Of a stretch of DNA of 15,696 nucleotides, positions 10,901 through 13,900 are shown one piece after another. Made by a program: the position numbers. The first letter of the stretch is position 1, and each line of letters opens with the position of its first letter. Source of the stretch: a virus. Its lineage: Duplodnaviria; Heunggongvirae; Uroviricota; Caudoviricetes. The stretch is taken from IMG/VR virus record IMGVR_UViG_2531839178_000023, one strand, 5' to 3'.

Positions 10901-13900
10901 TCAATTGGTCAACGCAACAGTTATGTGAAAACATGGGGTCGCGGAGGTTTTTTGAATGAGACGAACATTTACAGCAGAGGAAAAAGCCTCTGTTTTTGAA
11001 CTATGGAAGAACGGAACAGGCTTCAGTGAAATAGCGAATATCCTGGGTTCAAAACCCGGAACGATCTTCACTATGTTAAGGGATACTGGCGGCATAAAAC
11101 CCCATGAGCGTAAGCGGGCTGTAGCTCACCTGACACTGTCTGAGCGCGAGGAGATACGAGCTGGTTTGTCAGCCAAAATGAGCATTCGTGCGATAGCTAC
11201 TGCGCTGAATCGCAGTCCTTCGACGATCTCACGTGAAGTTCAGCGTAATCGGGGCAGACGCTATTACAAAGCTGTTGATGCTAATAACCGAGCCAACAGA
11301 ATGGCGAAAAGGCCGAAACCGTGCTTACTGGATCAAAATTTACCATTGCGAAAGCTTGTTCTGGAAAAGCTGGAGATGAAATGGTCTCCAGAGCAAATAT
11401 CAGGATGGTTAAGGCGAACAAAACCACGTCAAAAAACGCTGCGAATATCACCTGAGACAATTTATAAAACGCTGTACTTTCGTAGCCGTGAAGCGCTACA
11501 CCACCTGAATATACAGCATCTGCGACGGTCGCATAGCCTTCGCCATGGCAGGCGTCATACCCGCAAAGGCGAAAGAGGTACGATTAACATAGTGAACGGA
11601 ACACCAATTCACGAACGTTCCCGAAATATCGATAACAGACGCTCTCTGGGGCATTGGGAGGGCGATTTAGTCTCAGGTACAAAAAACTCTCATATAGCCA
11701 CACTTGTAGACCGAAAATCACGTTATACGATCATCCTTAGACTCAGGGGCAAAGATTCTGTCTCAGTAAATCAGGCTCTTACCGACAAATTCCTGAGTTT
11801 ACCGTCAGAACTCAGAAAATCACTGACATGGGACAGAGGAATGGAACTGGCCAGACATCTAGAATTTACTGTCAGCACCGGCGTTAAAGTTTACTTCTGC
11901 GATCCTCAGAGTCCTTGGCAGCGGGGAACAAATGAGAACACAAATGGGCTAATTCGGCAGTACTTTCCTAAAAAGACATGTCTTGCCCAATATACTCAAC
12001 ATGAACTAGATCTGGTTGCTGCTCAGCTAAACAACAGACCGAGAAAGACACTGAAGTTCAAAACACCGAAAGAGATAATTGAAAGGGGTGTTGCATTGAC
12101 AGATTGAATCTACAGTTGCTTTTTTTAATATATCTCGCTCAAGGCGAGCTTCATTTAACGCCTTACGCAGTTGCAGAATTTCAGATTCCAGTTCAGCCAC
12201 CGTGCGGGAACCAGGAGTACCGAGTCCTTTTCTGGCGGCGGTAACCCATTGTCCTAAAGTGCCTTCAGGAAGGGATAATCGGGAAGCGCCTTCACTGATC
12301 GAAAGTTGATTTTCAAGAACCGTTCTGACAGCTTCGGCTTTGAACTCTTTAGAGTAACGTTGGGTTTTTCTGCTCATTATTAGCTCCTTCTGATGCCATT
12401 CTATTTCAGGAAGGAGTGTCCGTTAAACTCAGGCTACCTCAAATTAATGGCTGGCAACGAGGAGGCGCAGGCTAAATGCGTTCAGGTAATGAACATAAGA
12501 GTTAACGAACTAAAACAGGCGGCATAAATGGCAAGCAGAGGCGTAAATAAGGTGATTATCCTTGGTCGGGTAGGACAAGACCCGGAAGTTCGATACTCAC
12601 CATCAGGAACAGCGTTCGCTAACCTGACAATAGCCACGTCAGAACAATGGCGAGATAAAAATACTGGCGAGCAAAAGGAATTGACTGAATGGCATCGTGT
12701 TGCTGTATCCGGGAAACTGGCTGAGGTCGTGGGGCAGTATGTAAAAAAAGGTGATCAGATTTATTTCGAGGGAATGCTGAGAACCAGAAAGTGGAAAGAC
12801 CAGTCAGGGCAAGACCGTTACACAACCGAGGTTCATGTCGGAATTAATGGCGTGATGCAAATGCTTGGCGGCATTGGCGACAGCAAACAACAAGCAGCCA
12901 GCAGGCAATCACAGAAGCCACAGCAGCAATCATCACCAGCACAACACAACGAACCTCCGATGGATTTTGACGACGATATACCCTTTGCACCAGTAACTCT
13001 CCCCTTCCCTCGTCACGCTATTCACGCAATTTAATCAGGAGAAAATCATGCCAGCGCCTCAGTATGGTGCGGATGACCCGCGCCGCTGTTCCGGCAATTC
13101 CGTATTGGAGGTGCTGGATAAATTCAGAAAAAACTACGACCGGATAATGTCGCTACCGCAGGAAACGAAAGAGGAAAAGGAATTTCGCCATTGCATATGG
13201 CTTGCAGAGAAAGAAGAACACGAGCGAATTTACCAGACATCAATCCGACCATTCCGCAAAGCCACATATACCCACTTCCCTGAAATTGACCCGCGCCTGC
13301 GTAATTACCGCTCACGCTATGGCGCTATCAGTAATGACTGAGGAATTAACCATGAGAGGACTTGCATACAATCCCGGCATTCTTCCGGCAGAAATGATTA
13401 TTCGCCAACGCGTAAAGCCAATGCCATCGAGAGAGGAATTGCTTAAGAGAAATTCTTTTCCATCAGTGAATCAAAACAAATATCTGAATGCGATGTGGCG
13501 GAGTGGGAAAAAATGAAACAAATGTCACTAATTGAGATGGATGGTTTTCTGAAAGGTAATAGATTTGCCCCTATATTTCCAGACATCTGTTATCACTTAA
13601 CCCATTACAAGCCCGCTGCCACAGATATTCCCGTGGCGAGCGATAACCCAGCGCACTATGCGGATGCCATTCGTTATAATGCTCGAACGCCTCTGCAAGG
13701 TTCTTTGCTGCCGTTAACCCGTCTGGTTTGGGCATGATACTGATGTAGTCACGCTTTATCGTTTTCACGAAGCTCTCTGCTATTCCGTTACTCTCCGGAC
13801 TCCGCACCGCCGTGTTCTTCGGTTCAAGTCCCAACATCCGGGCGAACTGGCGTGTTTCATTAGCCCGGTAGCATGAACCATTATCCGTCAGCCACTCCAC

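Follow-up and report, generated by a model that had tools for sequence, protein, structure and literature searches.

Gene content and decay of the locus

The locus comprises two neighbouring open reading frames, ORF1 (97 aa) and ORF2 (54 aa), which together occupy positions 13048-13516 of a 15,696-nt stretch of phage DNA, here called the window. As the initial annotation had noted, both are co-directional with ssb and follow it directly, as genes of the early left operon, and each has a ribosome-binding site that can be read in the sequence (Table 1). ORF1 and ORF2 are separated by a gap of 10 nt. The next gene, which is Ea22/EaE-like, starts at ATG 13513 within an ATGA overlap with the ORF2 stop and is preceded by GGAG at 13500-13503. 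The claimed translational coupling to this gene is borne out by the overlap, but the gene itself is cut by an insertion sequence after codon 16.

Table 1. Features around the two open reading frames, with positions in the window
Feature	Position	Strand	Evidence and remarks
IS3-family (IS600-like) element	9957..12441	-	orfB 9986-10825, orfA 12027-12377; ORFs, Pfam rve/HTH; left boundary approximate
IS30 splitting the IS600-like element	transposase 10956-12107	+	called genes in identical contig
erf 3' remnant, about the last 28 codons	12442..12527	+	megablast to HK75; PHROG 1097
ssb, 168 aa	12528..13034	+	PF00436 E 1.6e-36, PHROG 44; TAA stop 13032-13034
Shine-Dalgarno AGGAG of abc2	13037..13041	+	6 nt upstream of ATG; sequence reading
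Predicted abc2 (ORF1), 97 aa	13048..13341	+	ATG 13048, TGA 13339-13341; PF11043, PHROG 656, 8B1T_A
Shine-Dalgarno GAGG of the DUF2737 gene	13340..13343	+	overlaps abc2 stop; 8 nt upstream of ATG
Predicted DUF2737 gene (ORF2), 54 aa	13352..13516	+	ATG 13352, TGA 13514-13516; PF10930, PHROG 1117
5' end (15-16 codons) of EaE/HK97-gp37/HkaH-like gene	13513..13559	+	sequence reading; start overlaps ORF2 stop
Element taken to be IS2, 1331 bp	13560..14890	-	sequence of both ends; splits the gene coupled to ORF2
3' part of the split EaE-like gene	14896..15250	+	reconstruction; weak Ead_Ea22 match, PHROG 614/368
Ead/Ea22-like gene, 114-aa ORF	15352..15696	+	PF13935 E 3.4e-32; stop at the window's last bases

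The genes upstream of the pair link the locus to phage HK75. The ssb product is 100% identical to HK75 gp31 (tblastn) and carries a DDDIPF motif followed by a 13-aa extension. Upstream of ssb, residues 16-44 of an ORF at 12393-12527 align to the C-terminal end of PHROG 1097 (Erf-like annealing protein). Homology to phage DNA sets in at 12442, right after the end of the IS600-like element; the HK75 match, whose first aligned base is position 50 of the query 12393-13600, was used to set the right boundary of that element. Using megablast, we observed that the DNA of the truncated erf, ssb, abc2 and the DUF2737 gene is 97.6% identical to HK75, with the same gene order. HK75 is the prototype of the Erf+SSB+Abc2 class (PMC12315714). 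On the strength of these identities, we consider the two genes in 13048-13516 to be very probably the final pair of a recombination module of the HK75 type (Erf-SSB-Abc2). In contrast to the described module (gp33-Erf-gp31/SSB-Abc2; PMC12315714; preprint 10.64898/2026.07.10.737580), the one in the window is truncated: gp33, kil, cIII and most of erf have been deleted by an insertion sequence.

The module lies in a remnant of a P22-like/lambdoid prophage of Shigella boydii at the argW-dsd site, and an identical S. boydii contig ends in dsdX'/dsdA. Insertion sequences took PL and most of erf, a decay that the initial annotation had overlooked. The IS3-family element, presumably IS600, marks the place of a deletion in which PL and the immunity, replication and late genes were lost. 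The element downstream of ORF2, which we take to be IS2 by its InsC/InsD sequences, is flanked by a 5-bp target duplication (GGTAA, 13555-13559 and 14891-14895), and a two-ORF transposase (HTH_Tnp_1, rve) is called in the identical contig; its name rests partly on how E. coli sequences that match the whole window are annotated. Removing this element rebuilds an EaE-like gene of 133 aa (PHROG 614, E 3.9e-44). A crude consensus search of the plus strand between 12000 and 13500 found no promoter-like site. Since the IS-mediated deletion removed PL, both abc2 and the DUF2737 gene are probably silent relics here; with PL and most of erf gone their expression is doubtful, and some transcription may arise from a weak promoter or by reading through from IS30.

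Both ORFs are nevertheless intact, real genes on which purifying selection acts, as estimated against unique homologues (pN/pS 0.32 for ORF1 and 0.13 for ORF2). Given the small size of ORF2 and a longer frame that overlaps it among the listed ORFs, a chance or non-coding origin, or a 104-aa form of ORF2 starting at TTG 13202, had to be weighed. The longer frame merely prolongs that of ORF2 upstream into abc2. Where abc2 is divergent, as in loci L039, L047, L053 and L054 (65 aa), the prolongation is not conserved, and the annotated homologues begin at the ATG. Both ORFs match curated families, and their divergence is biased to third codon positions (46, 36 and 188 differences at the first, second and third positions for ORF2). 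The conservation across related prophages that had been proposed as a check was found: there are hundreds of syntenic homologues, and the 10-nt spacing of the pair is identical in 79 of the 80 fetched loci with a near-identical ORF2. Because of these conservation data, the chance or non-coding reading is refuted, and we regard it together with the long form as extremely improbable.

Family assignment of the two genes

The initial annotation could assign neither gene to a family and considered the pair the likeliest place in the window for undescribed function. Profile searches contradict both statements, as each ORF was assigned to a family far above the cut-off. ORF1 matches PF11043 (Anti-RecBCD_p2) over residues 1-97 of 97 (E 2.8e-61, 204.2 bits, cut-off 25) and PHROG 656 (E 2e-53), and it aligns to P22 Abc2 on RecBCD (PDB 8B1T_A) with 86 of 97 residues identical (89%, E 5.5e-56). 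The exact protein is already named "phage anti-RecBCD protein [Shigella boydii]" by NCBI. From these identities we are confident that ORF1 is Abc2, anti-RecBCD protein 2. It is thus one of the best-known anti-RecBCD proteins, and the proposal that the slot carries genes for host takeover or counter-defence agrees with this family.

P22 Abc2 has been studied in detail, with cryo-EM structures (PDB 8B1T/8B1U). Its P68, placed in the active site of PpiB, serves to recruit this host prolyl isomerase, and under the action of Abc2 the RecBCD helicase keeps running while Chi activation is blocked (PMC9836394). Because the helicase runs without being activated at Chi, DNA ends are passed to the phage annealing protein and not to RecA. 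ORF1 has the same length as P22 Abc2 and is 91% identical to the ATCC P22 record. It differs from 8B1T_A by 11 substitutions, of which three lie within the RecC-contacting residues 3-52 and five (L5Q, S20L, L32R, R58H and A65S) within the RecC-binding helices (residues 3-66). Also retained are the proline at the PpiB site, P68, together with F69 and the conserved C-terminal tail; neither P68 nor F69 varies even among Abc2 variants with only 29-34% identity. By homology, ORF1 would bind RecC and abolish Chi activation. As in P22, the gene is placed in the early left operon after the genes for the annealing protein and SSB, and the order of the truncated erf, ssb and abc2 is that of HK75, HK97 and epsilon34. 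Unlike in P22, abc1 is replaced by ssb, which is the HK75 and not the P22 type of module, and abc2 lies in a promoter-less prophage remnant.

ORF2 matches PF10930 (E 2.6e-31, 107.7 bits, cut-off 25; residues 1-52 of the 53-position profile) and PHROG 1117 over its whole length (E 4.1e-38, 1-54/54). It is 100% identical to HkaI of HK620, 96% to gp29 of HK75 and 75% to ORF56 of P22, and homologous to gp38 of HK97. Given these identities, ORF2 is very likely a member of the DUF2737 family. The four phage loci share with the window the 10-nt gap after abc2 and the ATGA overlap with the downstream gene; they differ in that the downstream partner is disrupted by IS2 here, whereas the ORF2 sequence itself shows no material difference. 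NCBIfam has no model for either ORF. Public records annotate both abc2 and the DUF2737 family already, and neither gene is novel. Only the DUF2737 protein is without a described function, and as it is a widespread and annotated gene, it is no new gene either. In a decayed Shigella prophage, two catalogued genes, abc2 and one of a DUF family, have been found again, which in itself matters little; the residual value lies in DUF2737, with its strong conservation and fixed position.

Conservation and genomic context of DUF2737

At 90% identity, only 43 non-redundant sequences of the family are left. Among 30 diverse members, conservation is restricted to residues 23-45, where ORF2 carries the core motif P-x-P-[ST]-R-E-E-L-[LM]-x-R-N-S-F-x-S-V-N-x-N-[KR]-[YH]-L. 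Residue R33 is invariant, and P23, E29, N34, S35, F36, N42 and L45 reach a conservation of at least 90%. The 54-residue protein is very basic, with a net charge of about +8. An AlphaFold2 model from a 30-sequence alignment shows three short helices with marginal confidence (pLDDT 70, pTM 0.26). The proposed structure searches gave no confident fold for ORF2: Foldseek with the model found no match in the PDB and BFVD, and a sequence search of the PDB returned nothing even at E 10. As the model is marginal and the Foldseek search empty, we draw no fold-based inference for ORF2.

A HMMER scan of 1.84 billion representatives gave only 60 DUF2737 matches. These are small proteins of the family, mis-called fusions or fragments, and one low-complexity repeat protein (P0156); host mimicry was not found among them. 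A literature search for DUF2737, PF10930, hkaI and HK97 gp38 returned no functional study. The only experimental paper found that includes hkaJ/hkaH ascribes the filamentation phenotype of the fragment to kil, and in the supplements of accessory-gene screens DUF2737 appears only as a neighbour of abc2. The dissections of the module that we found in the literature all omit DUF2737.

When zooming out to genomic context, we find that DUF2737 follows abc2 in P22, HK97, HK620, Sf6 and hundreds of prophages. In 247 of 311 non-redundant phage contexts, it closes a lambdoid recombination module at its distal end. It comes directly after abc2 in 169 of these 247, and an Abc2 or Mu-Gam-like gene is present in 225. 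The gap of 10 nt was fixed in 101 of the 107 Abc2-preceded loci of a first census, and translational coupling to the next gene occurs in 145 contexts. Contexts without abc2 comprise 56 that are Guernseyvirinae-like, about 55 lambdoid and seven others. The Guernseyvirinae that carry DUF2737 are virulent phages. An apparent fusion of an Abc1-like protein and DUF2737 was rejected as one metagenomic ORF call. Lambda orf60a and orf63, located after exo at the equivalent position, show no relationship to DUF2737 in hhalign (probabilities of 0.06% and 0.26%, respectively).

As judged by co-occurrence and co-variation, DUF2737 does not behave as an obligate partner of Abc2. ORF2 is 100% identical even where Abc2 falls to 63-74% identity. 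Furthermore, within one DUF2737 subtype, whose members are 92-98% identical, the preceding gene is Abc2-like, Abc1-like or of PHROG 154. Since the upstream gene varies within a single subtype, an obligate partnership with Abc2 is improbable.

Possible roles of DUF2737

DUF2737 might still serve the anti-RecBCD/recombination module as a dedicated accessory subunit and act, either with Abc2 or with a Mu-Gam-like and an Abc1-like protein together, on RecBCD, SSB or DNA ends. This would fit its place as the distal-edge gene of lambdoid recombination modules, which it always occupies whether the annealing protein is Erf, RecT or Sak4, as well as the frequent position directly after Abc2 with its fixed gap and the recognisable anti-RecBCD gene in most lambdoid contexts. 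The recombination locus has also been described as a hotspot of RecBCD manipulators and counter-counter-defences. However, DUF2737 does not co-vary with its upstream partner, and it also occurs away from any recombination gene, both in the virulent Guernseyvirinae and in other phages. The RecBCD-Abc2-PpiB complex assembles and purifies without it (PMC9836394), and in both the HK620 recombineering and the HK75 OLD-trigger experiments the module was defined with DUF2737 left out. Lastly, the PF11043+PF10930 "fusions" in databases are frameshift read-throughs via an alternative frame of the abc2 3' end. We thus regard such a subunit as possible, though doubtful.

The reading that we prefer, tentatively, is that DUF2737 does not need Abc2 to act and is an early factor directed at the host, encoded between the recombination module and the hypervariable Ea22/EaE-like genes. 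The 54-residue basic peptide would have no stable fold of its own and would fold only upon binding a partner. Its invariant 25-residue C-terminal helix-loop-helix motif would most likely bind a conserved host component, and the N-terminal half would be free to vary. Two observations count against this proposal: the positive charge fits nucleic-acid binding equally well, and the close association in position with anti-RecBCD genes points to a function connected with RecBCD.

The charge leads to a further alternative, in which DUF2737 is a small basic regulator that binds nucleic acid and not protein, for instance one of transcription or translation across the boundary between the recombination and ea genes. 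Apart from the net charge, the conserved Arg, Asn, Ser and Lys side chains in the core motif and the frequent translational coupling to the next gene are consistent with such a regulator, and in HK620 the position of DUF2737 coincides with the annotated terminator tL3. Yet the protein matches no DNA- or RNA-binding family or fold, Rfam detects no RNA family within the window, and DUF2737 also occurs in unrelated genome architectures with no common cis target evident. We therefore consider a regulator of this kind unlikely.

Small phage peptides that act on conserved host proteins are well known, such as lambda Kil on FtsZ, lambda CIII on FtsH and T7 gp5.9 on RecB. DUF2737 may work in the same way: it has about 50 residues with one short conserved interaction motif, and in related phages its gene shares an operon with kil and cIII homologues. 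In contrast to this similarity in size and arrangement, the three peptides have no sequence or fold similarity to DUF2737. As a host-directed effector, DUF2737 could be a third component of the RecBCD hijack of the P22 type, or an inhibitor or trigger of a conserved enterobacterial factor or defence; either version is a possibility that we put forward with reservation.

The region around DUF2737 is now seen as a battleground of phage RecBCD manipulators, of defences that guard RecBCD (OLD, retrons and Gabija) and of the inhibitors of these defences, and a function for DUF2737 would complete the parts list of the early left operon of P22, HK97 and HK620. If the effector role holds, the 25-residue motif would be the binding determinant. 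Such a role would explain why DUF2737 is the one constant gene between the recombination module and the anti-defence hotspot of Ea22/EaE (Oad2-related) genes, and also its retention in the virulent Guernseyvirinae.

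Coding status and identity of the two genes

The initial annotation described two small genes with ribosome-binding sites, lying behind ssb and coupled to the next gene, and we could confirm this layout from the sequence (see table). Both ORF1 and ORF2 evolve as proteins. The pN/pS ratio is 0.32 for ORF1 (compared to 41 unique homologous DNA sequences) and 0.13 for ORF2 (52 sequences), and the differences in ORF2 are distributed over the codon positions as 46/36/188. ATG is the start in all annotated ORF2 homologues. A 104-aa ORF starting at TTG 13202 was rejected as a gene: it is just the ORF2 frame, which stays open upstream across the 3' half of ORF1, and is only 65 aa long in loci with a diverged upstream gene.

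Features of the window in left-to-right order
Feature	Coordinates	Strand	Remarks
Integrase			
gtrA			
gtrB, split			by IS630-family transposase
IS630-family transposase	2150-2899	-	
gtrC-like gene (DUF6056), split	3740-4228 and 4390-5355		two ORFs
Acyltransferase	5449-6522		looks intact
Tailspike		-	
Late-gene ORF	9006-9992		truncated
IS600-like element	9957-12441	-	orfB 9986-10825, orfA 12027-12377; split by IS30
IS30 transposase	10956-12107	+	inside IS600-like element
ssb	12528-13034	+	upstream of ORF1
ORF1 (abc2)	13048-13341		97 aa; AGGAG six bases before ATG
ORF2 (DUF2737)	13352-13516		54 aa; GAGG Shine-Dalgarno overlaps ORF1 stop codon
ORF2 stop/next ATG	13513-13516		ATGA overlap
EaE-like gene	13513-15250		133 aa after in silico removal of IS2
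IS2	13560-14890		1331 bp; target duplication GGTAA

ORF1 matches Pfam PF11043 (Bacteriophage P22 anti-RecBCD protein 2) from end to end (E 2.8e-61) as well as PHROG 656 (abc2 anti-RecBCD; E 2e-53). Furthermore, 86 of 97 residues are identical, ungapped, to the 97-residue chain of PDB 8B1T/8B1U, which is P22 Abc2 on RecBCD. Judged by its sequence, ORF1 is Abc2, and NCBI already lists exactly this sequence under the name "phage anti-RecBCD protein [Shigella boydii]". Its structure and mechanism are already known in detail. P22 Abc2 does not stop the RecBCD helicase but alters its Chi-dependent behaviour, and the processed end goes to phage annealing proteins and not to RecA; based on this P22 literature, ORF1 would with high confidence act in the same way. 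ORF1 contains Pro68. According to the structural work on P22 Abc2 (PMC9836394), this residue occupies the active site of PpiB, a prolyl isomerase of the host that co-purifies with the complex. P68 and F69 are invariant in an alignment with Abc2 variants that are only 29-34% identical, as are several residues of the C-terminal tail (D81, R83, R90 and G92). As these invariant residues lie in a tail that is not resolved in the cryo-EM structure, the tail may be functionally important.

ORF2 matches PF10930 (DUF2737; E 2.6e-31) and PHROG 1117 (unknown function; E 4.1e-38). It is 100% identical to HK620 HkaI, 96% to HK75 gp29 and Sf6, and 75% to P22 ORF56, and at least 1000 contigs encode precisely this protein. 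The earlier statement that neither ORF can be assigned to a family is thus superseded by the profile searches. The proposed counter-defence slot holds for ORF1, but it is not a slot of undescribed genes: abc2 and DUF2737 are both known, the latter as a family that is already annotated in many genomes.

Distribution and possible role of DUF2737

When 1.84 billion cluster representatives were scanned in full with HMMER, 60 proteins reached E <= 0.001, and a one-genome-per-species scan found DUF2737 in Escherichia, Shimwellia, Intestinirhabdus, Pseudescherichia and one odd Taishania contig. The family is small and enterobacterial. The odd contig (Taishania pollutisoli NZ_JACVEL010000022.1, locus L204; 72% identity over residues 23-54) is attributed to a Bacteroidota species far beyond this range, and its match may be phage contamination. 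Among 30 diverse members, a variable N-terminal half is followed by an almost invariant core, P-x-P-[ST]-R-E-E-L-[LM]-x-R-N-S-F-x-S-V-N-x-N-[KR]-[YH]-L, and a basic tail. One metagenomic member (P0170) carries the core in tandem duplicate.

A PDB sequence search with ORF2 gave no match. The AlphaFold2 model from the family alignment has short helices (12-18, 27-33 and 43-52; pLDDT 70, pTM 0.26) and no Foldseek match in PDB or BFVD; since the model is weak, these negative fold searches weigh little. The model suggests a peptide that may fold only on a partner. Our literature search (PF10930, hkaI, HK97 gp38, motif strings) found no functional work on DUF2737, and the one paper found that names it describes a phage genome. 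Module dissections end at Abc2 in the HK620 recombineering construct, which excludes DUF2737, in the lambdoid Rec-module survey (PMC12315714) and in the HK75 gp33-Erf-gp31-Abc2 clone of the July 2026 OLD preprint (10.64898/2026.07.10.737580).

To compare neighbourhoods, 379 loci were fetched and reduced to 311 non-redundant contexts. In 247 lambdoid contexts, the DUF2737 gene forms the distal edge of the recombination module, and in P22, HK97, HK75 and HK620 it lies directly 3' of abc2. The gene directly upstream encodes Abc2 in 169 of the 247 (including divergent 101-105-aa forms still matching PHROG 656), an Abc1-like HTH protein in 38 (usually after RecT and a Mu-Gam-like protein), a PHROG 154 protein in 28 and a PHROG 38486 protein in five; Abc2 or a Mu-Gam-like gene is present in 225. 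The downstream gene, overlapping by ATGA in 145 contexts, nearly always starts with the same 15 residues and then diverges into Ea22/EaE-like variants.

The striking constancy of this position favours the main alternative, in which DUF2737 truly belongs to the anti-RecBCD module as an accessory; we regard this as about as likely as the reading proposed below. Three observations speak against an obligate partnership with Abc2. ORF2 is 100% identical even where Abc2 identity is only 63-74%, and the members of one subtype, 92-98% identical, have Abc2-like, Abc1-like or PHROG 154 genes in front of them. Moreover, in 56 virulent Guernseyvirinae-like contexts DUF2737 is found among small genes between endolysin and small terminase, and it also occurs in seven other architectures with no Rec gene nearby. 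The core motif is kept in these Jerseyvirus/Kagunavirus-type phages (L084-L143, L003) and in a few of the other architectures (L095, L304, L378). Database "Abc2-DUF2737 fusions" are frameshift read-throughs and not a sign of joint function, and the family has no relationship to lambda orf60a and orf63, which occupy the equivalent position behind exo.

We propose, with low confidence, that ORF2 is an independent early host-directed peptide, which would use its invariant C-terminal motif to bind to some conserved component of enterobacteria. Such a target fits the strong purifying selection and the distribution across lifestyles better than a fast-evolving defence protein. A nucleic-acid-binding regulator, consistent with the net charge of about +8, seems improbable.

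The decayed prophage around the pair

The window is a decayed prophage. The O-antigen modification genes beside the integrase (1292-6522) are decayed. The element that we take to be IS600-like joins the truncated late-gene ORF straight to the final ~28 codons of erf, which implies a deletion of about 30 kb including the early-left promoter PL and the immunity region. Phage homology resumes at 12442, within these codons; therefore PL, immunity region, replication and late genes are gone. No sigma-70-like site was found on the + strand upstream of ssb-abc2-ORF2, and both ORFs are intact but here probably silent. An identical arrangement is present on S. boydii contig AKNA01000064.1; there, a dsdX fragment and dsdA lie behind the Ea22-like gene. 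This is the argW-dsd site, which in E. coli K-12 is occupied by the cryptic prophage CPS-53.

An element that we take to be IS2, judging by its InsC/InsD sequences, splits the gene coupled to ORF2. The restored product of this gene resembles EaE, HK97 gp37 and HkaH. The EaE-related HK446 gp27 (Oad2) is reported to inhibit the P2 OLD defence nuclease (10.64898/2026.07.10.737580).

In the phage SSB, the acidic motif DFDDDIPF is followed by 13 extra residues, so the acidic tip is not C-terminal. The same ending also closes an HNH endonuclease before abc2 in other phages, and resembles a mosaic linker placed in front of this gene.
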